DNA of 64,000 nucleotides from Candidatus Caldarchaeales archaeon (GCA_039630085.1 JBCNVM010000002.1:32001-96000), one strand, 5' to 3'; positions 29,214-46,648 are shown, numbered from the stretch's first letter. Notes: generated by a model from the sequence alone, not told the origin. Numbers and translations: made by a program.

Positions 29214-30590
29214 TCAGCATATGTTAGAATATAATACGTTGTTCGGGTCGACAGCATCCTTTATTTTAGATAGAAGGATTGAAGCAGGGCCGGGATCCCT
29301 TTCAACCCATTTCCTCCTCAGCTGTCCGACGCCGTGGTGATGGCTTATCGTCCCGCCGAACTCCAGCGCCACATCGAACGCCGTTTTCACTATCTTCCAA
29401 TACAAGGCCGGGTCCCTCTCATACACGATGGTGTAGTACAGGGCGCCTCCGTTCACGTAAAAGTGCGAAGCGTGGGCCAATACTCCGGCTACTCCCGTGA
29501 GCTCTTTCATCCTGCTCCGCATTGACTCGTGGAGCCTCGGGATCTTGGACCATGTTGCCGCGACGTCTACGGTCTCAAACCAAAGACCCATCGAGTCCAG
29601 CAGCTTCATTTCATTCAAGTAGTTGAACCTGGACTTGAGCCACGAGTCGTAAGGTCCCTCGCCCATGTAAGAGCCGCCTAATTCCTCCACCCTATTCCTA
29701 GCCTTCTCCCATGTGGTCGTCACGAGCTCTTGCTCGTAACCCTCGTAACTCAGCAACAGCACCGGCTCGTTCGAACCGAACCTCACGACCGATTCGGACT
29801 CGTCCGATAATCGGGCCACTGAAGGTCTCATCCCGTTGACTATCAGCTCCCTCACGATTCTCAAGCCTGCGCTGAAGCTCCGCGTCCCGAAGGCGGCCCT
29901 GACCGAGTACTTCGGTAAAGGGAGCACCCTCAGAGTAGCTTTGGTGATCACGCCGAAGGCCCCCTCCGAACCGACGAAGAGGTGAACCAGGTTGGGGCCC
30001 ATGGACGAACGGGGCGTCAGCACGTTCCTTGTCTTCAGGATCTCTCCGGTGGGCGTCACGACCTCGAGGTTCAGGACCAAGTCCTCGACGTTGCCGTAAC
30101 CGGTGCTGTACTGACCCGAGCTCATAGACGCTATGCAGCCCCCTACGGTGGCTAGATGGAACGACTGGGGAACGTGCCTCAGGGTGTATCCCCTGACGTT
30201 GAGCCACTCCTCGAGGTCGCAGAGCAGCGCTCCCGCCTCCACGGTGACCGTCAGGTCCTCCTCGCTGAAGTCGACCACTCTCTTCATTTTGCCCAAGCTC
30301 AACACCACGCAGTCGTCCGGGGGAGCGGAGGCTCCGGTAACGCTGGAACCGCCTCCGTGCACCACGACCCGGACCCGGTGCTCGTTCGCCTTCCTGAGCA
30401 CGTACGAGACCTCCTCGGCGCTCTCGACGGAAATCACGGCCTTGGGTCTCAAGTTCCAAGATCCCAGCCTCTCCAGAAGCATCGCCAGAGGCCACCAGTC
30501 CCTCGAGTACCTGCTGATCTCCTCCTCGTCCGTCCTGACGTCGTCGCCCAAGGACGCGCACACATCTCTGAGGAATTCCTCTAGGCCCAT
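29214..30590 (-). CDS. FAD-binding oxidoreductase, alkyl-dihydroxyacetone-phosphate synthase-like (VAO/PCMH family)
   Basis: 'GGGSSV', 'HVPQSF..ATVGG', 'SSGQYSTGYG', 'PRSSMGP', 'ETVD', 'AHASHFY..G..LY', 'ISHHHGVG'. Confidence 0.8.
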   Translation of the reverse strand: MGLEEFLRDVCASLGDDVRTDEEEISRYSRDWWPLAMLLERLGSWNLRPKAVISVESAEEVSYVLRKANEHRVRVVVHGGGSSVTGASAPPDDCVVLSLGKMKRVVDFSEEDLTVTVEAGALLCDLEEWLNVRGYTLRHVPQSFHLATVGGCIASMSSGQYSTGYGNVEDLVLNLEVVTPTGEILKTRNVLTPRSSMGPNLVHLFVGSEGAFGVITKATLRVLPLPKYSVRAAFGTRSFSAGLRIVRELIVNGMRPSVARLSDESESVVRFGSNEPVLLLSYEGYEQELVTTTWEKARNRVEELGGSYMGEGPYDSWLKSRFNYLNEMKLLDSMGLWFETVDVAATWSKIPRLHESMRSRMKELTGVAGVLAHASHFYVNGGALYYTIVYERDPALYWKIVKTAFDVALEFGGTISHHHGVGQLRRKWVERDPGPASILLSKIKDAVDPNNVLYSNIC

Positions 30591-31972
30591 CTCACGGCCC
30601 TCCTCCACGCGTTCGCATCGACCATTACCTCGAGCTCTCCGGGCTCGGCGATCAGGTCCACGTCAGCCCTTTCCTCCAAGTCCCGCATGGATAGCGTGCC
30701 GTCGTACAGCGCCAACAACATTGCCACGCCTCTGCCTGAGGCGTCCGCTCCCCTGACCCTCTCGACCCTGCGACCGCACGCCGTCGACAGGAGCTTGAGG
30801 TAACAGGCGCTGTTGCTGAGCCCGCCGTCGGCCCTTATCACGCTGCGTCTCCCGGCCACCCTTTCGACGGCCTCGACGATGCTGTGGGCTGACAACACCA
30901 GGCTCTCCAGGACCCCTCTGACCATGTCGCTCCTGCTGTGCGCCAGCGATAGTCCGTAGAGAAGACCTGTGCCTCCCTTCCTCCGGGGGAACCTGGTCTC
31001 GATCAGCGAGGGGACGAACACCGTCGCGTGCTCAGCCTCCGTGACGGCCCTGTCGAGTCCTCTTACATCGTCCAGAAGGCCGACCCTACAGAGCCATTCC
31101 ACCGTCGATCCACCGGCGGAGGTGTATCCCTCGATGGCATACGCCCTTCGACCGCCGATGTTGTAGACCACCAACGGTATGAGCTCGCCGCCCGGAATCG
31201 TGAAGTCGGCTACCGTCGCGTCCACGAACGTCCCCGTGCCGCTGGTGATCTTCAAGCAGTCTCCCCTGAGGCACGAGGAGCCTATGATCGCGGACTGCTG
31301 GTCGGCTATCAGGGCCGCGACGTCGACGCCCTCGATCGACCCGATGTGGCCGCAGTTGTCCACGATCTCGGGGCCCACGGACTCGGGTATGCCCAGCAGG
31401 GTGTAGACGACCTCAAGCCTCTTCGTCGTCTTGGGGTGGATGAGGCCGGTCAGCGCCTCGTTGGACAGATCGTTCAGGTACCTCTTGGAGGCGACGTAGG
31501 CTACGTAGGAGCTCAAGGTGCCGACGAACGCCTCTCCCCTAGAGACCTCCTCCCTGAGCGCGGGGTCGCTCTCCAGGAGCCACTTGATTCTGACCGCGGG
31601 GCTGTCCGGCCTGATCACCTTCCTCAGCACGGGGACGAGCCTGAGCGCCCTGTAGAGCGGCCTGGACGTCACCGCCCTGCCCCTGACGTCGAGCCACGTG
31701 ATCACGTCGGTCAGTGGCTGACCTCCCTTGTCCCACGCCAGCACCGAGCCCCTGTAGGTGGTTATGCCGGCCAGCTTGACTCCGTAGCCCCTCAGCCTCT
31801 TCACGAATCCCAGCAGGGCTTCCCTTATCGCAGTCGCGCTCTGCTCGACGTGACCCTCCGCGGTCCTCCGGAGGGGCACGCTCACCCTCTCCCTGTGGAC
31901 GCAGTTCAGCTGCTCGTCGTAGACGCAGAGCTTGATGCTGCTGCTCCCTATGTCGACGACGCCGTACTTCAT
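30581..31972 (-). CDS. FGGY-family kinase, glycerol kinase-like
   Basis: 'DIGSSSIK', 'ITWLD.R', 'ADQQSA', 'KITSGTGTF', 'ADGGLS'. Confidence 0.85.
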   Translation of the reverse strand: MKYGVVDIGSSSIKLCVYDEQLNCVHRERVSVPLRRTAEGHVEQSATAIREALLGFVKRLRGYGVKLAGITTYRGSVLAWDKGGQPLTDVITWLDVRGRAVTSRPLYRALRLVPVLRKVIRPDSPAVRIKWLLESDPALREEVSRGEAFVGTLSSYVAYVASKRYLNDLSNEALTGLIHPKTTKRLEVVYTLLGIPESVGPEIVDNCGHIGSIEGVDVAALIADQQSAIIGSSCLRGDCLKITSGTGTFVDATVADFTIPGGELIPLVVYNIGGRRAYAIEGYTSAGGSTVEWLCRVGLLDDVRGLDRAVTEAEHATVFVPSLIETRFPRRKGGTGLLYGLSLAHSRSDMVRGVLESLVLSAHSIVEAVERVAGRRSVIRADGGLSNSACYLKLLSTACGRRVERVRGADASGRGVAMLLALYDGTLSMRDLEERADVDLIAEPGELEVMVDANAWRRAVRWA

Positions 31973-32919
31973 CCCGCGACGACCTCCACGAGCTCGGCAT
32001 CGCCCGGAACTCCGATCACCGCGTAACCCTCCTTCAGCTCGTACCTTCTGCCCTCGATCGTCGCCGTGGCTCCCCTACGACCCATCACGAGGAGTCTCCT
32101 CAGGCATCCGCACAAGGTCTCCGGGAAGACCTTCAGGTTCCCTCTCACGCTCACCTTCACGGTCCTCCCGCACCCGCAGGATAACCTGTCCGCTAGCAGC
32201 TCGGAGGCCTCCATCAGGACCTTCGGGTCGTAGACGTCGATGGCGGCGTGTCCCACCGCGGGGAACTCGGGGAAGGGGTTCCAAGGTTCGAACATCGCTA
32301 TCACGAGCGCGTCAACCCCGAGGGCCTCGCCGTTTACGTACACGGACGACAGCCTGCCTCGTCCCCTTATCCGCTCGACCCTGCCCCTCAGAACCGTGAC
32401 CTCGTCGGGGACTCTCAACTCGGGGTCGTCCTTCGACGGGCCGGAGGGGTCTACTACGACGACTCCTATGACGTGCTCTAAGAGCTTGGATGCGAGCAGT
32501 ACGCTGTACCTGTTCAGACCGTACAGGGCTACGTGCCTGCCCGGCACGAGCCCCTCCGTCAGGAGGTCCAGGACCGCGTGATAGGGGTACACACCAGAGG
32601 GCCTGTCTCCGAAGATCCCCAGCTCAGCGGGCGTCAGGACCCTGAAACCGGTGGCCACCACGCAGCCCCTCAAGCCCTCGACTCCATCACTCGAGACGGC
32701 CACTAATTCGCCTCTGACCCTAACGGCCGTCCTCTCGGTCTCGACCCTCACCTCCCGAGAGACCTCGTCCACTATGCTCATGGCCTCTGGGTCCGTCGCG
32801 GAGATGCCGCCCAGCCTGCGCCTTGTCTCGATGACCCTCGCGTCGATCCCCCTCTCGAGCAGCTCCTTGGCGAGCGAGAGCCCAGCTAGTCCCGCCCCTA
32901 TGACCGTTCTACCAGCCAA
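31969..32919 (-). CDS. FAD/NAD(P)-binding oxidoreductase (probable GlpA partner)
   Basis: GAGLAG Rossmann motif; 'ATG.R', 'I.GDRPSGVY'. Confidence 0.75.
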   Translation of the reverse strand: MAGRTVIGAGLAGLSLAKELLERGIDARVIETRRRLGGISATDPEAMSIVDEVSREVRVETERTAVRVRGELVAVSSDGVEGLRGCVVATGFRVLTPAELGIFGDRPSGVYPYHAVLDLLTEGLVPGRHVALYGLNRYSVLLASKLLEHVIGVVVVDPSGPSKDDPELRVPDEVTVLRGRVERIRGRGRLSSVYVNGEALGVDALVIAMFEPWNPFPEFPAVGHAAIDVYDPKVLMEASELLADRLSCGCGRTVKVSVRGNLKVFPETLCGCLRRLLVMGRRGATATIEGRRYELKEGYAVIGVPGDAELVEVVAG

Positions 32920-34310
32920 GAGCCCTCACTTCCCTTGACGAGGGCCTCTGGGTTGAGACCGGTCAACCTCAGCACCTCGATTATCGCCCTGCCTAAGCAG
33001 TGCTGACCCTGGCAGGACCCCATGCCCAGCCCCGTCCTGAACATCACACCATCGAGCGTCCTGGATCCCGCCCTGACCGCTTCCTCGATGTCAGCCAGGC
33101 TGACGGACATGCACGGACAGACGACGATGCCCCTCGGGCCCTTGACCGCGGTCGGGTCGACCTGAAGCAGCTCCCGGGTCTTACGCGGGAACTCGGGATC
33201 CCGGAGGCCGGTCTTCAGCTCGAGATCCAAGCCAGCTCTCTTGAGCATGTTCAGCACGATCACGGCGATGGCAGGTGCGGCCGTGAACCCCGGCGACTCG
33301 ACGCCCACTAGGTTCACGATCCTGAAGGTCTTAGGGGAGTAGGCGATGACGAAGTCGCCGCGGACGTGCGAGGGCCTTACGCCGGCGTACGCCTTGAGGA
33401 GCCTGCCCCTACTCCTGACGATCCCGCCGAATCTGGCAGTGAGCACCTCGACGTCCTCCGGGTAAACTCCCTTGTCGTCCCTCGAGCCCCCTCTGGCGAG
33501 GTTCGGCCCCCAGATGGTCCTGCCCCAGACCGTCGGTATTATCCCGCCGCCCTTGGTCTCCCCTCCGCGAACCAATTGGAGGGGCGCGACGACGCTCCTG
33601 ACCTGAAGCCCTTCGAAGACCAGCATCGCTCCCCTTTTCGTGACCAGTGACTCCTCGGCTCCGCTGAGGTTCGCTATCCTGTCGGACTCCAGACCCGCCG
33701 CATTGACGAGGAACTTCGACTTCACGGGACCCCGGTTGGTCCGTAGGACGACGCAGTCCGGCTCGATTTCTATTCCTACGACTTCTGTGTTGAAGAGGAA
33801 CTTCACGCCGCGACTCCTGGAGACATCGTGCAGCTTGTACACCAGATCGAAGGAATCGATGACGCCGTAGCCCGAGATCCTGATGGCGGCGTAACCTATC
33901 ACGTTGGGCTCCAGGGCCCTCAACTCGGCGCCGTTCACCACCGACACATCGAAACCTTTGGCTCCGTAGTAGAGCCTCAGGACCGCGTAGATGAGCGGCA
34001 TGATGAGGAGCTGCCCGAACGAGCGCGCCACTAGGAGCGCCGGAAGTCGCCAAAGTTTGACCTTCAGCTCTGCAGCTACCGCGTCGTACATCCTGTTGCC
34101 CTGCAGGCACAGCGCGCTCTTAGTGGACTTGAGGGGCAGCTGGACGACGTGCAGAACGCCCGCGTGTCCCTTCGAAACCCCGAACCCGGGCTCGGCCTCT
34201 TTCTCCACCATTACTACGTCGACGTCGTATTTTGACAAATGATAGGCTATGAAAAGCCCCACGACGCCGGCTCCGATTATCGCTACGTCGTGGGCCCGAT
34301 CACCCTTCAT
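32898..34310 (-). CDS. FAD-dependent glycerol-3-phosphate dehydrogenase-like protein with BFD-like [2Fe-2S] domain
   Basis: GAGVVG, 'AGVRP', 'ESPGFTAAPAIA', 'VCPC..V', 'GMGSCQG.HC'. Confidence 0.8.
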   Translation of the reverse strand: MKGDRAHDVAIIGAGVVGLFIAYHLSKYDVDVVMVEKEAEPGFGVSKGHAGVLHVVQLPLKSTKSALCLQGNRMYDAVAAELKVKLWRLPALLVARSFGQLLIMPLIYAVLRLYYGAKGFDVSVVNGAELRALEPNVIGYAAIRISGYGVIDSFDLVYKLHDVSRSRGVKFLFNTEVVGIEIEPDCVVLRTNRGPVKSKFLVNAAGLESDRIANLSGAEESLVTKRGAMLVFEGLQVRSVVAPLQLVRGGETKGGGIIPTVWGRTIWGPNLARGGSRDDKGVYPEDVEVLTARFGGIVRSRGRLLKAYAGVRPSHVRGDFVIAYSPKTFRIVNLVGVESPGFTAAPAIAVIVLNMLKRAGLDLELKTGLRDPEFPRKTRELLQVDPTAVKGPRGIVVCPCMSVSLADIEEAVRAGSRTLDGVMFRTGLGMGSCQGQHCLGRAIIEVLRLTGLNPEALVKGSEGSWLVERS

Positions 34311-36006
34311 GAACTCCACACCCTCCACGGAGCCGATAGTTCAGCCACCTCGAAGCGAAGAGCGCTACACCAGCGACCGCCATCAGAGGTGTTCCGAAGA
34401 ACCCCGCGAAGGCGGATCTCATCAGCGCGTTGAAGAAGAACAGCGCGTCGTTCATGTCCGGAAACGGGAACCTGAAGCTGACGCCGTAATCGACGTAGAA
34501 CGGCAACGCGTAAGCCAGGCTGACGAGTATCACGGACAGCGCCGTGAAGACGACGGTCACTAGAACCCTCAGCAGGCCCTTCCTAGAGGGCGCGAACCCG
34601 ACCGTCCCGATGAGGGGGCCCGCGACCAGAGCTCCGACGATTACGCTCGCCTGGATCCTGCCCATCAGCCATTCGAACGATACTACCTCCGAGAGACTGA
34701 AGGGGCCGTCGTTCAACGCGTAGGATGTCCAGAACGAAATCTCGTACGCCAGCAGTCCCGCGATCAGCGGAATCAAGTGCCTCCGCAAACCTCTGACTAA
34801 GGTGACTCTGAACGCGAGTCCTGCCGCCCCGACTGCGAAGGAAGTCGCCGCGGCGGCCAGGGCTAACCTCAGGGTCCCGCCCTCCCTCCTCAGCTCCTTC
34901 GTCACCAGGTCGTATCGGCTCAAAGGGTCCGACGTTGGATCAGTCCTGAGGCCGGCCGCCTCGCTCAACGCTCCGACAACCCTCTGCCCCTGTTCGACCG
35001 ATGCTCTCCGGTAACGCTCGACGGAATCACTGGGGAGGGCGAGGCCTCCGTCCAGCACGGTGCCCATGGAGTTCGCGGGGATCCTCCACCCCATTATCAT
35101 CGATACCGTGGGAGCGATGTCGTTGTGCGTGAACGCCGCTTCGTAGACTCCGGGCTTCACGACAGGTCCCAGCAACAGCAAGAAGACCCTCCTCACCTCG
35201 CGCTCGGGTCCTCCGTGATACGCTCCTCTCTTGAACCCGTGATCGTTTAAGATGACTATCAACGTGTCGTCGCTCAGGCCGTCCTTTCTCAAGGACTCCA
35301 AGAAGTTCAAGGTCAACTGGATCGCGTTCACTGCGGTCGCGTTGTACTCCTCTCCGGGAAAACCTGCGTTGTGTCCCATTATGTCTACGTCGTTTACCCC
35401 GATCCACAGGAAGGCCCTGTAACCCATATTGACGTGCTTCTTGAATAGCTCGTAGCCTTCGCTCATGGAGAGGGCGCCGTGCCCTCCGCCCTCAGCGACA
35501 CTGACGCACTCGTCGATGAGGGGCGAAAACAGGGTCCTGAAGGATTCGTCGCCGCTACAGAGGATCTTGTATCCCGAGTCCTTGGCGACCTTGACTAGGC
35601 TGTCGACCTCAAGGGGCCTCTTGAAGTCGTTCGAGGACGCTTCGTTCACCTCCGGAGGTGCTCCCGTGAGCACGGAAGCCCTTGCGGGCAGGGAGTAAGT
35701 GGGCAAGTTCGACAGGCCGTTCGGGTAGAACGCGCCGAGGGACAGAAGAGCGGCTACGTGTTCGTGCTCGCGACTCAGGTCGTTCAGGACCCTGACGTCT
35801 AAGCCGTCGAGAAGTATGAAGACGACGTGCTTCACCGCGGCCCTACCCGAAACCTTTACGCGATCGACCTCGATCAGGACGTCTAGGTATGGATTCTCGT
35901 AATTGATCCAGCCTCTGTAGGCGCTGAGGGCCGTGGAGGCCGCAGCATACGAGAGAGCCAGAACGAGGACGAGGGCGATCGCGACAGACGCGTAGAATAG
36001 CTTCAA
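34300..36006 (-). CDS. Membrane alkaline-phosphatase-superfamily enzyme (GPI ethanolamine-phosphate transferase-like architecture)
   Basis: N-terminal TM; 'LLDGL', 'PTYSLP....LTG', 'VDIMGH', 'NDHG', 'HGG', 'DIAPT....G..IP.NSMG'; about 5 C-terminal TMs; TTG start chosen. Confidence 0.75.
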   Translation of the reverse strand: MKLFYASVAIALVLVLALSYAAASTALSAYRGWINYENPYLDVLIEVDRVKVSGRAAVKHVVFILLDGLDVRVLNDLSREHEHVAALLSLGAFYPNGLSNLPTYSLPARASVLTGAPPEVNEASSNDFKRPLEVDSLVKVAKDSGYKILCSGDESFRTLFSPLIDECVSVAEGGGHGALSMSEGYELFKKHVNMGYRAFLWIGVNDVDIMGHNAGFPGEEYNATAVNAIQLTLNFLESLRKDGLSDDTLIVILNDHGFKRGAYHGGPEREVRRVFLLLLGPVVKPGVYEAAFTHNDIAPTVSMIMGWRIPANSMGTVLDGGLALPSDSVERYRRASVEQGQRVVGALSEAAGLRTDPTSDPLSRYDLVTKELRREGGTLRLALAAAATSFAVGAAGLAFRVTLVRGLRRHLIPLIAGLLAYEISFWTSYALNDGPFSLSEVVSFEWLMGRIQASVIVGALVAGPLIGTVGFAPSRKGLLRVLVTVVFTALSVILVSLAYALPFYVDYGVSFRFPFPDMNDALFFFNALMRSAFAGFFGTPLMAVAGVALFASRWLNYRLRGGCGVHEG

Positions 36007-36224
36007 GGGGCACCCACAAAAATAAAATGGGCTGAACGCCATTTAAGGGTTGAAGCCCCCTTTAACGAGAGTCGGAGCCGACCGAGCAGGCTTGTCGAGG
36101 AACGTCATTCGGTCGCAGTTAATCTTATCTCACGTCGTTCTCCGAAGCCACTGGCTCGCTGATCGAACGCGCGGGCAGTCCGCACGCCCCGTAGCGGCAA
36201 CGGGTCGCATGTTCACGGTGGCGA

Positions 36225-37877
36225 TCACGGCCACAGTATGAAGCGTCGCAGCAGGTAAGTCATGACGCCGGCCACCAACGCGGCGATCAGGTTGCCGGTC
36301 ATCTGGAACTGACCGTACGCTACTCCCAAGAGCAGGTACCACGCGATCAGGGGCCCGAGGAGGATCCTCTCGCCGAACTCGATCAGGAGCATTAGGAACG
36401 TGCTGAGGCCCGAGACCAACAGGAGAGCCTTGACGGGCCACTGCCTCGCGAACGGTATCCACGGCCAGAGCGTGACGATCGGTGCGAGGAGGACCACGGT
36501 CCCGAACCTGTTGTGGAGGAGCGAGGCGACTGCTGCGACTGAGAGCGCGACCATCGGGGGGAACGGGTGCGCGCGTCCCCTAGGACGGAAGAGGACCGCG
36601 GCCGCGACTGGAGGAGCGACGAAAAGGGCGAAGAGCAGCGGGTCAGGCGAGTAGAGGTAGGGATGCCGCGGCGGGGGAGGGTAGGTGTCGTACCTCGATA
36701 TGAGGCCGAGGGCAGGCGAGGCCGAGACGAGCGAGAAGGAGGCGGCGAAGGAGGTCGCGTAGACGCTGAGCTCGAGGAACGCGCCCTTGACCTCCCTCCT
36801 CTCCCGGAGCGACGCCGCGTGGACGACGACCGGTATCGCGAGGACCGCGGGAGCGATGTAAGTCACCAGACCCGGCGCGTACTGTCCGTCCAGAGCGAGG
36901 TAATCGTCGTCGTAGGGAGATATACGACCGGCTTCGTCGAGGCTCTTGAGCAGCGCGTAGACGAAGCGGCCGTAAGCCTCGAAGGAATTGACCCTCATGT
37001 TCTCCATCGTGTCCCTTGGCGTGTGGTAGACCTCCCTCGCGAGCTCAGGAGCGTCTCCCCTGCTCGAGACCTCGATCGCAGGTATCCCCCTCGCTATGAT
37101 TGGTCCTTGATCCGTGAAGGAGATGTCGACCGCCCTGTAGATGTATTCCCAGAGGCCGCTCGGATCCTCGACGCGGACGCCCAAGCGGTCGCCCACGTCC
37201 CTGCAGAGCCTCCTGAGCCAGAGCGGGGCGTACCCGGAGAACTGGCCCATCGACTCGAGGTAGATCGAAGTCAGGTTGCCCACGGTGAGGTCCTCGGCTA
37301 CCACCACCGCCCTGATCGGCGGGCCCTCGTACCGCTCGACGAAGTGCCTCGCTCCCTGCATCCCCCACTCCTCCGAGTCGACGAAGGCGAAGACGATCTC
37401 GCGCCTGTTGGGGACTTCCCTCATCGACCGCGCCAGCTCGAGAAGGACTCCGACGTGTCCGGCCGTGTCGCTCGCGGCCTGATGACTCGTGGGGGCCATG
37501 TCGTAGTTCGCGAGGACGACGACCGCCTCGGGAACGCTGCCCCTGAGCGACGCATAGACGTTCCTCCCCTTCCTGGGTTGCCCGATGACCACCTCGAACT
37601 CCTGGACCTTGACCTCGTAGCCCATCTCGCGCAGTCGGTCGCCGATCCAGTTGGACGCCTGAAGGGCGCCCTCGCTGCCGGTGGGCCTGTACGGGAAGCG
37701 GGTCGCGAGCTCGGCGGCGTACTCGTAGGCCCTAGTCGCGTTGAACCCGATCTCCGGGACGACGGCCTCGACCTCCGGCACGACCGGTTCCGAGACGAGG
37801 TGCAGCAGCAGGAAGGCCGCGACGCAGGACGCGTACACGGCCGCTAGGGCCTTACTGCCCCTCAACGCCGACGCCAA
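36225..37877 (-). CDS. Membrane M28 peptidase-family protein (N-TM, M28 domain, C-terminal TM bundle)
   Basis: 'ANYD', 'ASD.AG.V..LLELAR', 'DSEEWG..GA', 'YHTPRD'. Confidence 0.8.
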   Translation of the reverse strand: MASALRGSKALAAVYASCVAAFLLLHLVSEPVVPEVEAVVPEIGFNATRAYEYAAELATRFPYRPTGSEGALQASNWIGDRLREMGYEVKVQEFEVVIGQPRKGRNVYASLRGSVPEAVVVLANYDMAPTSHQAASDTAGHVGVLLELARSMREVPNRREIVFAFVDSEEWGMQGARHFVERYEGPPIRAVVVAEDLTVGNLTSIYLESMGQFSGYAPLWLRRLCRDVGDRLGVRVEDPSGLWEYIYRAVDISFTDQGPIIARGIPAIEVSSRGDAPELAREVYHTPRDTMENMRVNSFEAYGRFVYALLKSLDEAGRISPYDDDYLALDGQYAPGLVTYIAPAVLAIPVVVHAASLRERREVKGAFLELSVYATSFAASFSLVSASPALGLISRYDTYPPPPRHPYLYSPDPLLFALFVAPPVAAAVLFRPRGRAHPFPPMVALSVAAVASLLHNRFGTVVLLAPIVTLWPWIPFARQWPVKALLLVSGLSTFLMLLIEFGERILLGPLIAWYLLLGVAYGQFQMTGNLIAALVAGVMTYLLRRFILWP

Positions 37878-38931
37878 GACCTCTGAGCCCCTCCAGGAAC
37901 GACAGGGGATCGATGACGGCCTCCGGCGGAAGCACGCCCCTCTCCGACACCTCGCCCTTCAGGATCAGGCGGGCGCCGAGAGCGGCTGGCGCGGCCGTCA
38001 ACTTCCTCATCCTGTTCACCGAGCAGTAGCTAACTCGCCTCTCGCCCCTCACGGCCTCTACCCTCACGCCGCTGAGCGCAGGTCCTCCGACCCTGAAGAC
38101 GCCCTCGACCCTGTGGACCGCCCTCGAGAGCCGCTCGAGCCTCTCCTCGGTCGAGGTCAGCCCCATTCCGACCAGCGCCCTGAGCAGGCCGTTCTGCCAC
38201 GCGGGGACGAGGCCTCCTCTCACGGTCACGTTCCTGGAGACCTTGAGGTGCTTGGATATTGTGAGCGGCTCCGGGTGGCCCACGTAGTACAGCTTCAGCT
38301 TCCCCACGCCGGGGAACTCGAAGACGGCCGGCGACGTGCCCGCCTTCACCTTGGTCAGCCTGCCCTCGAGGTACATCGGGACCTCGCCCGTGACGGCGTG
38401 GAACAGGTGCATGACGACCGCAAGCCCCTTCGAGTCCGCGGCCGACCCGAACCAACTGATGCTCACCTCGTCGACCTCTCCTCCCAGCTCCTCGCAGCAC
38501 TTCTTCGCTAGGATGTTAGAGAGTCCGGGCGTCCATCCGAGCCCCGTGACGAAGGTGACTTCCTTCTCGACGGCCCGTCGATGCAGTTCGAGGATCCTCT
38601 CGGCGGCGTCGTGGTCGTCGCAGACGTCGACCGCGTCGATCCCCAGCTCGATCAGGGCCGAGGCAACGACGTGACCGTGCCTGTAGAACGGCCCCACGGC
38701 GTTAACGACGACATCGTACCTCCTCGCTGCGGCCATGTCTTCCTTCGAGGTGACATCGACCTTAACGACCCCGACATCTCCAAAGTGTTTCAGGGAGCGA
38801 GCGACCCCAAGCGCCCTCTGGACGTTCAGGTCGCCGATGTCGACCTCTGCGCCCAGCTTGACCAGCTCCTCGACTATCGCGCTCCCTATGTCACCGGCTC
38901 CGCCTAGCACCAGGACGCGCCCGGCCCTCAT
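37852..38931 (-). CDS. Saccharopine dehydrogenase-like oxidoreductase
   Basis: 'GGAGDIG', 'NAVGPF', 'GLGWTPGLSN', 'HPEP'. Confidence 0.85.
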   Translation of the reverse strand: MRAGRVLVLGGAGDIGSAIVEELVKLGAEVDIGDLNVQRALGVARSLKHFGDVGVVKVDVTSKEDMAAARRYDVVVNAVGPFYRHGHVVASALIELGIDAVDVCDDHDAAERILELHRRAVEKEVTFVTGLGWTPGLSNILAKKCCEELGGEVDEVSISWFGSAADSKGLAVVMHLFHAVTGEVPMYLEGRLTKVKAGTSPAVFEFPGVGKLKLYYVGHPEPLTISKHLKVSRNVTVRGGLVPAWQNGLLRALVGMGLTSTEERLERLSRAVHRVEGVFRVGGPALSGVRVEAVRGERRVSYCSVNRMRKLTAAPAALGARLILKGEVSERGVLPPEAVIDPLSFLEGLRGLGVGVEGQ

Positions 38932-40025
38932 AGCGAAACACTGCTGAGGGCCTTCGGGAGCCTGGTCGTGTTCTCGTAACCTGAGGATCCCAGAACTACG
39001 TCGTCCTCCAGCCTCACCCCGAACTTCCCTGGCAAGTATATTCCGGGCTCGATCGTGAATATCATGCCAGGCTCCAGCGGAGACCTGTTGCCCTCGACTA
39101 TGTCCGGTGCCTCGTGGACCTCTACACCTAGCCCGTGGCCGGTGCGGTGTATGAAGAACGACGCGAAGCCCTCCCGTGCTATGACCGATCTCGCTGCTCT
39201 GTCGACCTCCTCAGCCGGAATTCCCGTTGCCACGGCGTCCAGGGCCCGCTGTTGTGACTCCAGCACGACGTTGAAGACGCGCTCCTGCTCCGGGCCGGGG
39301 TTTCCGACCACAAGGGTTCTCGTGAAGTCCGCGTAGTAACCCCTGTAGCAGACCGAGGCGTCGAAGACTACCACGTCGCCCTCGCGGATCGTCCTCGACG
39401 TGGGCTCGAGGTGAGGGTTCGCGCTGTTCGGTCCGGACTGGATCAGGCAGTAAGCGCTCTCGGCGCCGAGGTCGTGGCAGAGCCGGTGGAACTTGCTCAT
39501 CGCATCCCTCTCGGTCGTCCCGTGCTTGAGCTCCGCCATCGTCTGAAGCATCGCCTCCTCTAAGACGCGAGCGGCCATCGCGTGCCTGACCACCTCGTCG
39601 GGGTCCTTCCGAACCCTCATGCCGACGACGACGCGGTCGACCTCCTCGAACCTCAGCCCCGGAGCCCTCTGCGCGAGGGCCCTGTAGAGCCCCACCGGGA
39701 GCCTCCTCTCTACGCCGACGACCCCTGAGAGGCCTGAGAACAGTCTCTCCACCAGACCCCAGGGGCCGGTCTCGTCGCCGTAGGAGAGGACCTCGCAGTA
39801 GCGCCCTATCGCCTCCTCGACCCTGTCCCTGTCGAGCTTAGGAACGACCATCGCCGGCTCCCGGTCGAACCCGATCAAGAGGAACGCGGGCCTCTCGAAG
39901 ACCTCCAGCGTGAAGTCGATGAGATACCTCATGTTGGGGCCGGGCACGATTACCGCGCCTTCGAACCCGGAAGCCCTGCAGAGCTCGAGGAACCTCTTCA
40001 GCCTGGACTCGACGCGAACCGGCAT
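38928..40025 (-). CDS. Xaa-Pro aminopeptidase (M24)
   Basis: 'GY.AD.TRT', 'HRTGHGLG..VHE', 'TIEPGIY', 'GVRLED'. Confidence 0.92.
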   Translation of the reverse strand: MPVRVESRLKRFLELCRASGFEGAVIVPGPNMRYLIDFTLEVFERPAFLLIGFDREPAMVVPKLDRDRVEEAIGRYCEVLSYGDETGPWGLVERLFSGLSGVVGVERRLPVGLYRALAQRAPGLRFEEVDRVVVGMRVRKDPDEVVRHAMAARVLEEAMLQTMAELKHGTTERDAMSKFHRLCHDLGAESAYCLIQSGPNSANPHLEPTSRTIREGDVVVFDASVCYRGYYADFTRTLVVGNPGPEQERVFNVVLESQQRALDAVATGIPAEEVDRAARSVIAREGFASFFIHRTGHGLGVEVHEAPDIVEGNRSPLEPGMIFTIEPGIYLPGKFGVRLEDDVVLGSSGYENTTRLPKALSSVSL

Positions 40026-40163: not shown

Positions 40164-41132
40164 ATGGACGCGGAGCCGCTCCTCGCGGTGCGGGGCCTGA
40201 AGACCTACTTCTACACCTCGATGGGCGTCGTGAGGGCCGTCGACGGCGTCAGCCTGAGGGTGAGGAGAGGGTCCGCCGTCGGGATCATCGGGGAGTCAGG
40301 CTCGGGGAAGACGATGACCGGGCTCTCAATTCTCAGGCTCGTGCCCTTCCCCGGCCGCATAGTCGCGGGCGAGGTCCTCCTCGACGGGGTGGACCTGCTC
40401 AAGCTCAGCGAGGATGAGATGAGGAGGATAAGGGGGAAGAGGATCTCGATCGTATTCCAGGACGCGCTCACCAGCCTGAACCCGGTGCTGACGGTCGGCG
40501 AGCAGCTGGCCGAGCCCCTGATGACCCACCTAGGCCTCAGCAAGAAGGAGGCCTACGATCGGGCCGCGGAGATACTCCAGAGGGTCGGCATACCCGATGC
40601 GAGCAGGAGGCTCACCAACTACCCTCACCAGTTCAGCGGCGGCATGAGGCAGCGCGTCCTGATAGGCATGGCGATCTCCTGCAACCCGGAGCTCCTGATC
40701 GCGGACGAGCCCACGACGGCCCTCGACGTGACGACCCAGAAGCAGATCATGGACCTCTTCAGGGAGCTGATGGCTAGGATGAACATGACGCTCCTGCTGA
40801 TCACCCACGACATAGGGGTGGCCGCCGAGATGTGCGATTACGTCTACGTGATGTACGCCGGCCAGATCGTCGAGGGCGGACCGACGGAGCGGATCATCTC
40901 GGACCCGAAGCACCCGTACACGAGAGGGCTGATAGAGTCGATACCGAGGGGCTTCAAGACTGAGACGCGGGTCAAGCCGATCGGGGGGACCGTGCCCTCG
41001 CTCCTCGACCTCCCTCCGGGGTGCAGGTTCCATCCCCGATGTCCTCTGGCGACGGAGAGGTGCGTGAGAGAGGAGCCCAATCTCATCGAGCTCGGTGACG
41101 GGAGGAGCGTGAGGTGTCTCCTGTATGATTGA
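40164..41132 (+). CDS. oppD: Oligopeptide/dipeptide ABC transporter ATPase
   Basis: GESGSGKT, 'YPHQFSGGMRQR', C-terminal 'GCRFHPRC'. Confidence 0.92.
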   Translation: MDAEPLLAVRGLKTYFYTSMGVVRAVDGVSLRVRRGSAVGIIGESGSGKTMTGLSILRLVPFPGRIVAGEVLLDGVDLLKLSEDEMRRIRGKRISIVFQDALTSLNPVLTVGEQLAEPLMTHLGLSKKEAYDRAAEILQRVGIPDASRRLTNYPHQFSGGMRQRVLIGMAISCNPELLIADEPTTALDVTTQKQIMDLFRELMARMNMTLLLITHDIGVAAEMCDYVYVMYAGQIVEGGPTERIISDPKHPYTRGLIESIPRGFKTETRVKPIGGTVPSLLDLPPGCRFHPRCPLATERCVREEPNLIELGDGRSVRCLLYD

Positions 41133-42090
41133 AGGCGAGTTCCTGATCAGATTGGAGGACGTGAGGAAGTACTTCCCCGTCTACAGGGGGATCCTCAGGC
41201 GGAAGGTCGGCGAGGTGAAGGCCGTCGATGGAGTCTCGCTGGGGGTGAGGGCAGGTGAGGTCTTCTGCGTCGTCGGGGAGTCGGGGAGCGGGAAGACGAC
41301 CCTAGGGAGGATCGCCTGCGGTCTCATCGAGCCGGACGGCGGTGCGGTCTACCTCTGGGACACTCCACTGAGCGAGCTGAACGGCCGGAACGCGGCTCAC
41401 GTCAGGAGGCGGCTCCAGATCGTCTTCCAAGATCCCGACTCGTCCCTGAATCCTAGGATGACCGTCGAGGCGACCCTCCGGGAGGCCCTAAGGGCCGCGG
41501 GGAAGGCCGGCACCCGCGCCGAGGCCCTCGAGCTCCTCCACATGGTGGGCATGAGGGCTGAGCACCTCGTCCGGTACCCGCACGAGCTCAGCGGCGGCCA
41601 GAAGCAGAGGGTCTGCATCGCCAGGGCTCTGGCGGTCGATCCGGTCTTCATGGTGGCCGACGAGCCCGTCTCCTCGCTCGACGTCTCGATCAGGACTTCT
41701 ATCCTGAACCTGATGCTGGACCTCCAGAGGAGGCTGAACCTCACGTACCTCTTCATCTCGCACGACATGGCCGTGACGAAGTACGTCGCGGACAGCGTCG
41801 CGGTGATGTACTTGGGGAAGATCTGCGAGATGGCTCCGGCGGGCGCGTTCTTCGGCAACCCGCTCCACCCGTACTCGAGGGCGCTGCTCTCTTCTGTCCC
41901 GCAGTTCTATGACCTCTGGTCCGGAGAGCCGGTGAAGCTCGTGGGAGATCCTCCGTCCGCAATGAACCCGCCGCAGGGTTGCAGGTTCCACACGCGCTGC
42001 CCATACGCTTTCGAGAGGTGTAGGGTCGAGGAGCCGAAGTTGATCGAGGCCGCTCCCAACCACTTCGTCGCGTGTCACCTCTACGGCTAG
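41125..42090 (+). CDS. oppF: Oligopeptide/dipeptide ABC transporter ATPase
   Basis: GESGSGKT, 'LSGGQKQR', 'DEPVSSLDVS'. Confidence 0.92.
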   Translation: MIEGEFLIRLEDVRKYFPVYRGILRRKVGEVKAVDGVSLGVRAGEVFCVVGESGSGKTTLGRIACGLIEPDGGAVYLWDTPLSELNGRNAAHVRRRLQIVFQDPDSSLNPRMTVEATLREALRAAGKAGTRAEALELLHMVGMRAEHLVRYPHELSGGQKQRVCIARALAVDPVFMVADEPVSSLDVSIRTSILNLMLDLQRRLNLTYLFISHDMAVTKYVADSVAVMYLGKICEMAPAGAFFGNPLHPYSRALLSSVPQFYDLWSGEPVKLVGDPPSAMNPPQGCRFHTRCPYAFERCRVEEPKLIEAAPNHFVACHLYG

Positions 42091-42986
42091 AGGAGCCTCA
42101 TCCTGGGGTCCAAGGCGTCACGGAGTCCGTCACCGATCAGGTTGAAGGAGAGGACGGTCAGGAATATCGCGAGGCCCGGAGCGAGCACGAGGTGCTGCTG
42201 CGAGAAGATGTAGAGGTAGTACTCCCCGAGCATCTGGCCCCACTCCGGCGTCGGCGGCTGTACACCAACCCCGAGGAACCCGAGGCCCGCGGCGACCAGT
42301 ATCGCGGTACCCATGTAGAGCGTGGCCTGGACGATCACCGGCGAGAGAGCGTTGGGGAGGACGTGCCTGAACATTATCACGTAGCTGGGGAGCTGGAGTG
42401 CCCTCGCGGCCTCGATGTAGTGCATCTCCCTGATCGTCAGGACCGAGGCCCTCACGAGCCTCGTGAAGACCGGGACGGCCGTCACCCCAACCGAGATGAT
42501 CACGTTCTGGAGGCCGACCCCGAGCATCGCGACCAGCGAGAGGGCGAGGAGGAAGGTCGGGAAGGAGAGCAGGACGTCTGTGACCCTCTGGACCACCATG
42601 TCCACCCACCTCGAGAAGTAGCCGGAGAGGAGACCGAGGACGACCCCGATCGCCGCCCCAAAGGAGACGGCCGCGAGCCCCACCAGCAGGGACATCCTGC
42701 TCCCGTGGAGGATCCTCGAGAGGACATCCCTTCCGAGCTGGTCAGTGCCGAGCGGGTGCTCCGGGCTCGGAGGACTCAGCGCGTTCGCAAGGTCCTGCCT
42801 GATCGGATTGTGCGGGTAGTAGTCGGCGAGCAGGGCGCTCGCGATGAACCCCAAAAGCATCACCAGCCCCGCGACTGCGGCCCTGTTCCTCCTGTACCTC
42901 CTCCAGAACTCCCTGAGGAGCGCGAACCTTGTCCTCTCCTCGACGCCCTCGAGCTCCCTGAGCAGCTCCGTCTCCTGGCTAGTCAT
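42087..42986 (-). CDS. oppC: Oligopeptide ABC transporter permease
   Basis: 'HPLGTDQLGRD', EAA loop, 'GDGLRDALDPR'. Confidence 0.92.
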   Translation of the reverse strand: MTSQETELLRELEGVEERTRFALLREFWRRYRRNRAAVAGLVMLLGFIASALLADYYPHNPIRQDLANALSPPSPEHPLGTDQLGRDVLSRILHGSRMSLLVGLAAVSFGAAIGVVLGLLSGYFSRWVDMVVQRVTDVLLSFPTFLLALSLVAMLGVGLQNVIISVGVTAVPVFTRLVRASVLTIREMHYIEAARALQLPSYVIMFRHVLPNALSPVIVQATLYMGTAILVAAGLGFLGVGVQPPTPEWGQMLGEYYLYIFSQQHLVLAPGLAIFLTVLSFNLIGDGLRDALDPRMRLL

Positions 42987-43908
42987 ATCTGATCCGCGGG
43001 TCTAAGTAGGAGTAGATTACGTCGACGACGATGTTGATCACTATGAAGATCACCGCGGTCATCAGGACGACGCCTTGGATCACCGGGTAGTCCCTGGCCA
43101 TCATCGACTCGTACAGCAGTCTGCCGATGCCCGGCCACGCGAAGACCGTCTCCGTCAGGACTGCTCCCCCGAGCAGGTTCCCGAACTGGAGGCCGACCAC
43201 CGTGACGACCGGTATCAGCGCGTTCCTGAGGGCGTGCTTGTAGACCACCGTCCTCTCTTCGAGCCCCTTCGACCTGGCCGTCCTGACGTAGTCCTGGCTC
43301 AGCGCCTCGATCATGCTGGACCGGGTCATCCTGACTATGAGAGCCGAGGAGAAGAGCGCCAGCGTTAGGGCCGGGAGGACGACGCTCTCGGGCCTCTCGG
43401 CTCCCGCCGCGGGGAGTAGGCGCAGGTTCACCGCGAAGACCAGGATGAGAATGATCCCGAGCCAGTAGACGGGCATCGAGACCCCGAAGAGCGAGGCGGT
43501 CGTTATCGCGTAGTCTGCTCTGGTGTAGCGGTGCCTTGCCGAGAAGACGCCTACCAGGACTCCCACGGTGATAGCGATGGCCATCGCGGCGAGCGTCAGC
43601 GCGAAGGTGTACGGAAGGCGCGAGGCTATCTCCACGATGACCGGGCTCCCCGTCCTCGCGGAGGTCCCGAGGTCGCCCCTGATCAGGTTGGAGAGGAAAA
43701 CGATGTACTGCTCGTGTATGGGTTTGTCGAGCCCGAGGAAGGCCCTGATCCTTTGGACCTCCTCCTCGCTCGCCAGAAGACCCGCGATAACCCTCGCTGG
43801 GTCGCCGGGGAGAAGCCTGACCATCATGAAGACCAAGAGCGAGACGCCGAAAAAGGTGGGGATTGAAATTAGGACCCTCCTTACGACGTAGTTGAGCAGT
43901 CCGCCCAC
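42979..43908 (-). CDS. oppB: Oligopeptide ABC transporter permease
   Basis: 'LPGDP', 'DYVRTARSKG', 'HALRNA', 'LDPRI'. Confidence 0.92.
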   Translation of the reverse strand: MGGLLNYVVRRVLISIPTFFGVSLLVFMMVRLLPGDPARVIAGLLASEEEVQRIRAFLGLDKPIHEQYIVFLSNLIRGDLGTSARTGSPVIVEIASRLPYTFALTLAAMAIAITVGVLVGVFSARHRYTRADYAITTASLFGVSMPVYWLGIILILVFAVNLRLLPAAGAERPESVVLPALTLALFSSALIVRMTRSSMIEALSQDYVRTARSKGLEERTVVYKHALRNALIPVVTVVGLQFGNLLGGAVLTETVFAWPGIGRLLYESMMARDYPVIQGVVLMTAVIFIVINIVVDVIYSYLDPRIRYD

Positions 43909-43915
43909 GATCCTA

Positions 43916-45496: not shown

Positions 45497-45595
45497 GCAA
45501 CATCCCATTGTTGTTGATGATAAAGTTTTTTGGAGATAAAGCTTGCCGGGGTAACCGGCGCAAACGTGATATCCGGAGGGGCGGACGGGCCGTCG

Positions 45596-46648
45596 ATGAA
45601 CCCGCCCGTGATCGACCTGCACGAGGACGTCTCGCTCTACTACACGTTCGCGGGGCACGGTCTGAAGTTCGGGCCGGCGGACTTCGACGCAGACGTGCCG
45701 GGAAGGCACGGCGATATCCCCAAGTACAGAAGGGCGAACGTGAGGCTCGTCTTCGCCGCGATCGCGTTCGTGATGCCGACGGTCAGCGGGTACAGGTCCG
45801 CCCAGCTGACCGCCGGTTACGGAATGAGGTTCGGGACCTACAGGGTCAGGGCTCCGGTGGCCGTTGCGCTGGAGCACGTCAAAGTCTACTACGGCCTCCT
45901 CTCGAAACACGGCCGCGACCTAGGACTGATCAGGCGGCCGGAGGACGTGAAGGAGGTCGAGAGGGGCGACGGGAGGACTTGGTTCCTGATGGCCCTAGAG
46001 GGCGCAGAGCCGCTGGAGGACGTCGAGGACCTTGACCTCTTCTACGCGCTGGGACTGAGGTCCTTACAGCTCACCTGGAACTTCGACAACAAATACGCGG
46101 CGTCGTGCATGTCAAGGCGGGACTACGGCCTGACGGGCGACGGTGCCGAGCTGGTCAGGAGGTGCAACGAGCTGGGTGTCATCGTGGACCTGGCCCACGC
46201 GAGCAGGAGGACAGCGCTGGAGGTCCTCGAGACCTCGGAGCTCCCTGCGGTGATAAGCCACGCGAACGCCTCGGCAGTCCACCAGCACAAGAGGAACGTC
46301 GACGACGAGGTCCTCGAGCGGTTGAAGGGCAACGGCGGGGTCATCGGGGTCACCCTGATAGAGCCCACGATCGGGGCGGAGGCGGACTTCAGGAGGCTCG
46401 CGGACCACGTGATGCACATAAGGAGGAGGATCGGGATCGACCACGTCGCGCTGGGGACGGACTTCTTCGGGCTGCTGAACATGCGGGAGCCGGAGGGCCT
46501 CGAGGACGTCACGAGGCTCGAGAACCTCTGGAGGGAGCTGCGCTCGAGGGGCCTGAGCGAGGAGGAGGTCGAGAAGGTCGCGTTCCGTAACGCCATGAGG
46601 GTGATATGGGCCAACGCGGAGAGGTGGGTCGATCTGTTCAGGCGCTGA
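45596..46648 (+). CDS. Membrane dipeptidase (M19)
   Basis: 'DLHED', 'LEGA', 'LTWN', 'DLAH', 'SHAN', 'LGTDF'. Confidence 0.88.
   Translation: MNPPVIDLHEDVSLYYTFAGHGLKFGPADFDADVPGRHGDIPKYRRANVRLVFAAIAFVMPTVSGYRSAQLTAGYGMRFGTYRVRAPVAVALEHVKVYYGLLSKHGRDLGLIRRPEDVKEVERGDGRTWFLMALEGAEPLEDVEDLDLFYALGLRSLQLTWNFDNKYAASCMSRRDYGLTGDGAELVRRCNELGVIVDLAHASRRTALEVLETSELPAVISHANASAVHQHKRNVDDEVLERLKGNGGVIGVTLIEPTIGAEADFRRLADHVMHIRRRIGIDHVALGTDFFGLLNMREPEGLEDVTRLENLWRELRSRGLSEEEVEKVAFRNAMRVIWANAERWVDLFRR

Follow-up and report, generated by a model that had tools for sequence, protein, structure and literature searches.

The eukaryotic glycosylphosphatidylinositol (GPI)-anchor machinery includes two kinds of membrane protein that resemble the products of two neighboring archaeal genes. 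These genes, here called AlkP-TM and M28-TM for their alkaline-phosphatase-superfamily and M28-peptidase-fold domains and their transmembrane (TM) helices, lie side by side on the minus strand of a 64,000-nucleotide stretch of Candidatus Caldarchaeales archaeon DNA (GCA_039630085.1, JBCNVM010000002.1:32001-96000). We refer to that whole stretch as the window and count positions from its first letter. A preliminary description had read the two genes as parts of one prokaryotic system, transferring phospho-head groups to lipids or glycans or lipid-anchoring surface proteins, and possibly fed by the ether-lipid genes downstream.

PIG-N, PIG-O, and PIG-G (Mcd4, Gpi13, and Gpi7) place a PF01663 catalytic domain between an N-terminal helix and ten or more C-terminal helices; their nucleophile is Thr, and a DHG...HGG..E motif is typical. 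In bacterial glp regulons, the exported phosphodiesterase GlpQ/UgpQ is encoded beside glycerol-3-phosphate (G3P) dehydrogenase genes and provides glycerol backbones to catabolism. Archaeal ether lipids are made by a route other than alkyl-dihydroxyacetone-phosphate (alkyl-DHAP) synthase (AGPS). ERMP1/Fxna-type eukaryotic peptidases have an M28 domain whose metal ligands are intact and, after it, a membrane domain of several helices. GPAA1, as described in the accessible part of PMC9098846, has eight TM helices, four amphipathic helices, and a protease-like domain; its zinc motif is lost, mutation of candidate residues had no effect, and it is not the catalytic subunit. The accessible part of Eisenhaber et al. 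(PMC4111754) also places the metal loss of GPAA1 at site 1. No prokaryotic protein with the full GPAA1 architecture was found in print, and PMC7522609, as far as its text was available, says nothing of prokaryotes, of archaea, or of homologues in bacteria. Nor did we find in print an alkaline-phosphatase-superfamily gene within archaeal glycerol clusters, or a cluster joining one to glp and AGPS-like genes, including in the available portions of bioRxiv 10.64898/2026.06.23.733905 and PMC13012113; the available portion of PMC11962113 mentions neither alkaline phosphatase nor phosphodiesterase.

The two archaeal membrane enzymes do resemble parts of the eukaryotic machinery, M28-TM strikingly. 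We hold at about even confidence that the locus comprises two separate, abutting operons—one for peptide use and one for glycerol/ether-lipid metabolism—rather than one system, with M28-TM a mono-zinc aminopeptidase and AlkP-TM a head-group phosphodiesterase.

Organization and Linkage of the Two Genes

The two genes and their parts are as follows.

34300..36006, minus strand: AlkP-TM gene, 568 aa from TTG 36006 (open reading frame [ORF], Pfam, 568-aa homologues, AlphaFold2 model)
35038..35847, minus strand: AlkP catalytic domain, predicted extracytoplasmic, aa 54-323 of the 568-aa protein
34321..34878, minus strand: AlkP-TM C-terminal bundle, five TM helices, aa 377-562 (DSSP of the model, hydropathy)
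36007..36224, no strand: intergenic gap of 182-218 bp (ORF coordinates), its size set by the choice of AlkP-TM start
36225..37877, minus strand: M28-TM gene, 550 aa, TTG start; membrane M28 metallopeptidase-fold protein
36924..37775, minus strand: M28 domain, predicted extracytoplasmic, aa 35-318
36234..36872, minus strand: M28-TM C-terminal membrane domain, ~7 TM helices, aa 336-548 (DSSP), superposing on the GPAA1 membrane domain

Both are genuine genes, not chance ORFs, since homologues are numerous (24 close ones for AlkP-TM and at least 60 for M28-TM), each is single-copy in the host genome (1.41 Mb, 89.9% complete), and the AlphaFold models reach a predicted local distance difference test (pLDDT) of 91.5 for AlkP-TM and 95.3 for M28-TM. 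Named relatives are labeled Acidilobaceae, Thermofilaceae, and Sulfolobales for AlkP-TM and Nitrososphaerota and Caldarchaeum for M28-TM; the window DNA itself is present in two DNA sequencing runs of one hot-spring metagenome study, with no RNA run among those listed. TTG 36006 is the AlkP-TM start used by database relatives and by the earlier description, and an in-frame ATG at 36042 offers an alternative that adds 12 aa (34300-36042, 580 aa). An A/T-rich TTAAAT about 38 nt upstream of TTG 36006 may be a candidate archaeal TATA element of AlkP-TM. Hydropathy and the models concur with the earlier account on the layout of each protein: a TM helix at the N-terminus, then the catalytic domain, and a TM bundle at the C-terminus. 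Both catalytic domains are predicted to be exported and to face outward, an orientation consistent with the positive charges that precede the first helix and those found at the C-termini.

Along the minus strand, between 40025 and 29214, each gene overlaps the next by 4-29 bp, the one exception being at 36007..36224. We presume, from the sequence layout, that this gap is the border between two operons.

Linkage of the two genes proved local. Among 401 sampled genomes of the phylum (matches at E<=1e-10), AlkP-TM occurs in 9 and M28-TM in 8; G000 and its congener G180 are the only genomes to have both, and there they stand side by side; G174 has weak matches to both families on separate contigs. 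By tblastn, M28-TM was found within ~9 kb of AlkP-TM at 0/80 genome loci (mostly Chloroflexota, Myxococcota, Acidobacteriota, and Actinomycetota), and AlkP-TM within ~8 kb of M28-TM at 0/80 metagenome loci. In five bacterial genomes with relatives of AlkP-TM, no full-length M28-TM was found. Searches for two other GPI components were likewise negative: neither a Peptidase_C13/GPI8-type protease (PF01650, E<=0.01) nor PIG-L (PF02585) was found in the host genome, an absence that is not proven because the genome is only 89.9% complete. With adjacency limited to one genus and these partners not found, the synteny and protease searches both speak against the joint head-group-transfer or lipid-anchoring system put forward at the outset.

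Structure and Active Site of M28-TM

M28-TM matches Peptidase_M28 (PF04389, 2e-23) above the Pfam cut-off and has the M28 fold. Hydropathy and the AlphaFold model agree on one N-terminal TM helix, the M28 domain, and then ~7 TM helices; the model, built from a 55-row alignment without templates, has a predicted TM-score (pTM) of 0.93. AlphaFold2 weights are older than the 2022-2026 GPI-transamidase entries.

Two structure comparisons carry the likeness to GPAA1. With Foldseek against the Protein Data Bank (PDB), the top five matches are all GPI-transamidase chains (8imy_G, 8imx_G, 7w72_A, 7wld_G, and 9ub7_A), with query TM-scores (TMq) of 0.57-0.70; the best, 8imy_G, reaches E 1.6e-20, TMq 0.70, and target TM-score (TMt) 0.66, and the remaining matches span the M28 domain alone at TMq ~0.4. 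In an independent all-against-all structure comparison covering 48,161 representative chains, more than ~270 residues aligned only in 7w72_A, 7wld_G, and 9ub7_A. Alignment over the full length of M28-TM was thus confined to GPI-transamidase chains. We identify the chains as GPAA1/Gaa1 from their M28 fold and from their fit to the description in the accessible part of PMC9098846. The GPAA1-like layout first noticed from the sequence is in this respect strongly supported.

In the shared plan, a helix at the N-terminus leads into an M28-fold domain on the outward or lumenal side, and a C-terminal membrane domain of several helices follows, placed alike relative to the rest, with eight TM helices in all; the first metal site is lost in both proteins. 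The differences are equally plain. Sequence identity is only 16-18%, and M28-TM keeps D, E-E, D/E, and H where GPAA1 is without the zinc motif. The Pfam Gaa1 family (PF04114, cut-off 28.6 bits) has no match in the window M28-TM at E<=10 and is matched by 3 of 55 relatives, each below the cut-off (E 0.011-0.31, 10-15 bits) and confined to a stretch within the M28 domain, residues ~113-181. No partner of the GPI8 or PIG-T/S/U kind is evident for M28-TM (PF01650 not found; no search aimed at the others was made). M28-TM is therefore built like GPAA1 while lying outside the Gaa1 sequence family, and it would work like an M28 metalloenzyme.

That expectation comes from the active site. Against the M28 set of five ligands (H, D, E, D, H) and a general-base Glu, M28-TM has four of the ligands and the Glu, its metal-site positions being N124 (canonically His), D137, E169/E170, E195/D196, and H285. 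Across the 55 aligned relatives, D137 and E169 are each kept in 52, E170 in 53, and H285 in all, and conservation of the whole set including E195/D196 ranges over 45-55/55. The earlier reading of ANYD, with Asn in place of the first zinc-ligand His, is present in the translation and is a family trait (Asn in 45/55, His in 10/55). The further idea of a degenerate M28 protein as in GPAA1 does not stand, as the Asp/Glu/His metal site and the catalytic Glu are retained and only the first His is replaced.

A new His141, four residues past the bridging Asp, is found in 40/55 members, all of them Asn-type (40/45, versus 0/10 His-type). It may be a relocated ligand replacing the lost His.

The M28 domain is closest to active aminopeptidases. 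PDB searches with single proteins and profiles returned aminopeptidases, cyclases, and nicalin, with GPAA1 not among the matches listed, and ESM Atlas returned bacterial M28 clusters only. The active M28 aminopeptidases (Bacillus subtilis BSAP/YwaD 6hc6, Aneurinibacillus AM-1 2ek8, and Vibrio AAP 1amp) and the bacterial glutaminyl cyclases (6qql and 7d18) are, however, either soluble proteins or anchored by lipid, with no counterpart of the eight-helix membrane domain; M28-TM departs from them also in the Asn at the first His position and in the extra His. The ERMP1-type Pfam family has no match among the 55 M28-TM members at E<=10, and no solved ERMP1 chain came up in the searches; ERMP1 may well be as close to M28-TM as GPAA1 is, or closer.

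The M28-TM family, whose active site is almost intact, is widespread; most members are bacterial, and a few come from hot-spring archaea. On balance we think it probable that the whole "portico" architecture of GPAA1 is older than eukaryotes and started out as an active membrane peptidase. Should the resemblance stem from a shared ancestor, the ancestor of GPAA1 was a working membrane metallopeptidase, and its activity could be tested in a simple prokaryotic protein.

Some sister-family copies carry in-frame stops (2 TAA; 1 TAG; 1 TGA and 1 TAG) or are split: G090:C3:29507-31128 (L015, L019), G345:C43:3174-4802, and G345:C33:14134-14961 (L013, L018), the last two being the two copies of one genome. 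The pattern suggests decay or assembly errors.

Peptide-Related Context of M28-TM

Upstream of M28-TM, the gene run continues via PepQ into a peptide-type ATP-binding cassette (ABC) transporter.

37852..38931, minus strand: saccharopine-dehydrogenase-like (SacDH-like) gene, PF03435 and PF16653, overlapping the M28-TM start by 26 bp
38928..40025, minus strand: PepQ-like Xaa-Pro dipeptidase (Pfam M24 1e-64; NCBIfam archaeal PepQ 6e-57), first gene of the PepQ/SacDH-like/M28-TM run
40164..45910, both strands: peptide-type ABC transporter genes, with two ATPases (plus; assigned by sequence reading only) and a permease and an SBP_bac_5 binding protein (minus; Pfam BPD_transp_1, SBP_bac_5)

The SacDH-like gene precedes M28-TM in six of the eight phylum genomes that have M28-TM (G000, G180, G058, G303, G345, and G090). 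It adjoins M28-TM at 5/80 metagenome loci, and PepQ does so at 2/80 (L134 and L144).

We propose that PepQ, SacDH-like, and M28-TM form a first operon beside the peptide transporter. M28-TM would be a membrane-embedded ectoenzyme, either a mono-zinc aminopeptidase or other exopeptidase or an enzyme of near N-terminal processing, acting at the outer face of the membrane, probably in peptide scavenging. A membrane-bound aminopeptidase is the most likely identity.

Fold and Membrane Domain of AlkP-TM

AlkP-TM matches Phosphodiest (PF01663, 3e-12) and Sulfatase (PF00884, 7e-11), and PF01663 is matched by all 26 family members. One N-terminal TM helix precedes the catalytic domain and five TM helices follow it, by hydropathy and by the model alike. 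The motifs quoted in the preliminary description are all in the translation: PTYSLPARASVLTG, DIMGH, DHG, HGG, and DIAPT..G.RIPANSMG. Invariant across archaeal and bacterial members are D67, S105 (the nucleophile position), N126, D208, H212, D255, H256, and H264. These supply the two-metal set of NPP/PafA enzymes (Asp, nucleophile, Asp-x3-His, Asp-His, and His) and a stabilizing Asn, on an NPP-like core fold. In the membrane part, S439, G508, and P516 are invariant over the same range. With six helices in all, the loops around S439 and G508..P516 (FPFPD) would lie, going by the model, on the outer face beside the catalytic domain.

Structure comparisons differ in the order of their matches. The all-against-all comparison ranks PafA/NPP best, followed by sulfatases (Z 24-27), PbgA, LtaP, and LtaS (23-24.5), and MCR-1 and EptC (~20.8); Foldseek puts PbgA/YejM and LtaP first (E 1e-10), with flat E-values. 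The C-terminal five-helix part has no covering match in any of the structure comparisons. PDB sequence searches, single and profile, gave only sulfatases, NPPs, and PafA among the matches listed.

Each of the nearest described groups differs from AlkP-TM. NPP/PafA enzymes, among them the lipid-specific ENPP6 (glycerophosphocholine phosphodiesterase) and ENPP7 (alkaline sphingomyelinase), occur in soluble, single-pass, or GPI-anchored form and lack the five-helix bundle; AlkP-TM has Ser rather than Thr as nucleophile, and its last His lies 8 residues past the DH pair. LtaS/EptA/OpgB-type phosphotransferases have an N-terminal five-helix domain and then a sulfatase-like domain, the reverse of the order here. 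PIG-N/O/G differ in the number of C-terminal helices, in the Thr nucleophile, and in gene context, which for AlkP-TM is glycerol metabolism. With no PIG chain among the solved structures listed, this comparison is by Pfam, layout, and ESM Atlas. In the Atlas, eukaryotic PigN, PIG-G, and PIG-O clusters stand at ranks 25-30 with a score of 0.90, behind bacterial clusters of the same architecture (0.95-0.98); we treat this score as a lead, not a test. PigN (PF04987) and PIGO_PIGG (PF19316) have no match in the 26 members at E<=10. The earlier match of layout and motif order to PIG-G/O/N thus stays weak, with the shared Pfam domain, the similar layout, and the Atlas score behind it; the best structural matches are generic PafA/NPP enzymes, and PIG-specific domains are not matched.

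We considered a formylglycine sulfatase, the motif being of the SxPxR...LTG kind and radical-SAM genes lying nearby in the window, L021, and L024. The window protein and its close archaeal relatives read S-L-P-A-R-A-S-V-L-T-G, and six bacterial members (alignment A3) keep the Pro but not the Arg. This reading was dropped because the motif Arg is missing there and the NPP-type metal ligands are invariant, no search aimed at the anSME family having been made.

The radical-SAM genes lie at 27323-28960 (plus strand) in the window, 7750-9276 in L021, and 7795-8661 in L024, and are not mutually homologous by clustering. They were considered as possible Ser-to-formylglycine maturases; the window copy carries an HMPTM-type zinc ribbon.

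Glycerol-Metabolism Context of AlkP-TM

Downstream of AlkP-TM, four genes complete the minus-strand run.

32898..34328, minus strand: GlpA-like FAD G3P dehydrogenase, DAO and BFD-like 2Fe-2S domains (Pfam, NCBIfam), overlapping the AlkP-TM stop by 29 bp
31969..32919, minus strand: GlpB-like FAD/NAD-binding subunit (Pfam NAD_binding_8, Pyr_redox_2)
30581..31972, minus strand: FGGY-family kinase (Pfam FGGY_N, FGGY_C)
29214..30608, minus strand: alkyl-DHAP-synthase-like (AGPS-like) flavoenzyme, FAD_binding_4 and FAD-oxidase_C, SHHHGVG motif

The kinase is best matched by glycerol kinase (NCBIfam GlpK, 2e-51), at 175 bits and under the curated cut-off of 590. For the AGPS-like enzyme, phmmer against the PDB favors alkyl-DHAP synthases (2uuu 1.1e-47, 4bby 4.5e-47) over LctD (1e-36), and the L060 copy matches alkyl-DHAP synthase over its full length at 1.1e-67. 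The motif SHHHG[VI]G, typical of AGPS, is present in 4/4 AlkP-linked archaeal copies.

AlkP-TM stands beside GlpA-like, FGGY, and AGPS-like genes in G000, G180, G186, and G255, and in L035 a GlpA-like gene directly follows it before the contig ends. The loci of G260 and L033 are interrupted by contig ends and stay outside the flank counts. A Chloroflexota operon (L051 2013-15259, L060 3945-15213, and L063) brings together G3P dehydrogenase, AGPS-like, FGGY, AlkP-TM, GH5 (with GH5_C), FA_hydroxylase, alpha/beta hydrolase, and major facilitator superfamily (MFS) genes; it looks like a locus for glycolipid or ether-lipid utilization. The tie that had been drawn between AlkP-TM and a downstream ether-lipid gene is thereby upheld, the best solved relative of that gene being alkyl-DHAP synthase and the cluster recurring in other lineages.

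The AGPS-like gene itself is present in 31/401 phylum genomes (E<=1e-70), namely 6/9 with AlkP-TM and 25/392 others, counts in which kin are not independent. At 10 of 12 further loci (L193-L204), it accompanies GlpA and/or GlpK homologues, five of them in the window order of GlpA, GlpB-like, GlpK, and oxidase. Because AGPS-like and glp genes occur together, mostly without AlkP-TM, we regard them as a core module in which AlkP-TM is an accessory first gene. The AGPS-like gene is a regular Thermoproteota partner of GlpA-like, GlpB-like, and FGGY genes, as also seen in L021 and L025.

We propose that AlkP-TM, GlpA-like, GlpB-like, FGGY kinase, and AGPS-like form a second operon. AlkP-TM would be an outward-facing NPP/PafA-type two-metal phosphodiesterase with a Ser nucleophile, held at the membrane by its five-helix bundle, whose conserved outer loops are probably part of the substrate path. 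Its substrates would be glycerophospholipids, ether lipids, or glycerophosphodiesters, from which it would cleave the phosphodiester head group, leaving the glycerol backbone to the kinase, the dehydrogenase, and the AGPS-like enzyme. The most likely identity of AlkP-TM is a phosphodiesterase that acts on lipid or glycerophosphodiester head groups and feeds glycerol metabolism. The parallel with GlpQ is a functional analogy from gene context only, GlpQ being a soluble GDPD TIM barrel and AlkP-TM a member of the alkaline-phosphatase superfamily.

Discussion

The folds, the conserved residues, the synteny, and the missing linkage between the two genes are shown here, and from them we infer the substrates, the direction of flux, and the operon border. 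Several observations weigh against two independent operons with these functions. The side-by-side, same-strand placing of two rare and patchy families has a chance of about 1/750 (two given genes in ~1,500), so that a functional or co-transfer link within this genus is possible. Bacterial M28-TM neighbors are heterogeneous (MEDS, LysR, aspartokinase, and transglutaminase-like) and give no functional clue, so the peptide-scavenging role is drawn from the archaeal context only. Asn at the first metal site together with the new His141 could mean a chemistry other than that of an aminopeptidase. Glp genes adjoin AlkP-TM at 5 of the 10 archaeal loci with usable flanks and are not beside it in G262, G011, G274, G174, and L034; conversely, the glp and AGPS-like module occurs without AlkP-TM in 25 of the 31 genomes. 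Finally, multi-helix membrane domains are typical of lipid-dependent phosphotransferases, so AlkP-TM could be a transferase, not a hydrolase.

This last possibility is the alternative that survives best, improbable though we judge it. AlkP-TM, like EptA, LtaS, OpgB, or PIG-N/O/G, would pass a phospho-head group, such as glycerol phosphate, from a membrane lipid to an extracellular acceptor (glycan, lipid, or protein), with glycerol recycled or supplied by the glp genes. The invariant, outward-facing loops of its multi-helix membrane domain are consistent with such a role, as are the PIG-like order of helix, catalytic domain, and helices, the first-ranked Foldseek matches to PbgA/YejM and LtaP, and the Atlas lead to GPI ethanolamine-phosphate transferases. 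Against these stand the PigN and PIGO_PIGG families, unmatched in 26 members at E<=10, and the Chloroflexota operon, whose GH5, alpha/beta hydrolase, and MFS partners are catabolic in type.

For M28-TM, we consider it unlikely that the protein is other than an aminopeptidase, whether a glutaminyl-cyclase-like enzyme that makes pyroglutamate at the N-termini of exported proteins or a GPAA1-like, mainly non-catalytic scaffold or substrate recruiter. Its GPAA1-like membrane domain would suit such roles, and with the first His ligand gone, only one metal is expected to bind, as in cyclases according to the accessible text of PMC4111754. A pure scaffold is nevertheless unlikely because the catalytic Glu and three ligands are kept in 52-55 of 55 members, and the neighbors are PepQ and a peptide transporter.

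A more specific pathway for the glycerol genes, which we rate as quite unlikely, is oxygen-independent breakdown of ether glycerolipids. AlkP-TM would remove the head group, the FGGY kinase would phosphorylate the alkylglycerol, the GlpA-like enzyme would oxidize it to alkyl-DHAP, and the AGPS-like enzyme would cut the ether bond by AGPS chemistry run either backward or with water. Archaeal genomes have these four genes together in order, and so does Chloroflexota, there with FA_hydroxylase-family, alpha/beta hydrolase, and GH5 genes; the AGPS-like enzyme has its closest matches in true alkyl-DHAP synthases (1e-47 in the window, 1e-67 in L060) and its AlkP-linked copies share the AGPS motif; and AGPS chemistry swaps the C1 substituent of DHAP esters (PMC3509576, accessible part). 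Yet the scheme is pure conjecture, with no such pathway found in the available portions of the literature searched, and C2 is blocked in archaeal diethers. Ordinary glycerol catabolism simply explains the kinase and dehydrogenase, and most genomes with the AGPS-like gene do without AlkP-TM. Independently of that specific scheme, what becomes of ether lipids under hot, anoxic conditions is little understood, and the recurrent link of membrane-bound phosphodiesterase, glycerol kinase, G3P dehydrogenase, and AGPS-like enzyme in Thermoproteota and Chloroflexota points to an undescribed glycerolipid, possibly ether-lipid, pathway.

Two broader schemes would rejoin the genes. It is very unlikely that M28-TM is a still-catalytic prokaryotic GPAA1 homologue acting at the membrane surface on amine-bearing lipid head groups or protein termini and forming, with a PIG-N/O/G-like enzyme and the AGPS-like module, a primitive lipid-to-protein or amine-to-lipid coupling system that foreshadows GPI anchoring. 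Least probable of all, and not supported, is a prokaryotic GPI-like system in which AlkP-TM puts a phospho-head group such as phosphoethanolamine on a lipid or glycan, M28-TM helps join proteins to it, and ether-lipid genes feed the process: for all the same-strand adjacency in two congeneric genomes, the full-length match of M28-TM to GPAA1, the PIG clusters as the nearest named Atlas neighbors of AlkP-TM after its own family, and the AGPS-like gene within its operon, the linkage stops at one genus, each gene has its own conserved partner set, the 182-218 bp gap separates the two where all neighbors overlap, Peptidase_C13 and PIG-L were not found in the 89.9%-complete genome, and eukaryotic GPAA1 is itself not the catalytic subunit and has no zinc site (PMC9098846, accessible part). 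The joint proposal largely falls with the generic PafA/NPP matches of AlkP-TM and the lack of linkage beyond the genus, but the GPI-transamidase chains remain the best structural matches of M28-TM. Two smaller findings are left: a prokaryotic GPAA1 counterpart that is enzyme-like, and a phosphodiesterase module that is conserved and lipid-linked.

Other Features of the Window

At 25546-27003 (minus strand), the window holds a 485-aa ORF with no Pfam match at E<=1e-5; another ORF of its family lies close to AlkP-TM in G274 (L024 15473-16948).

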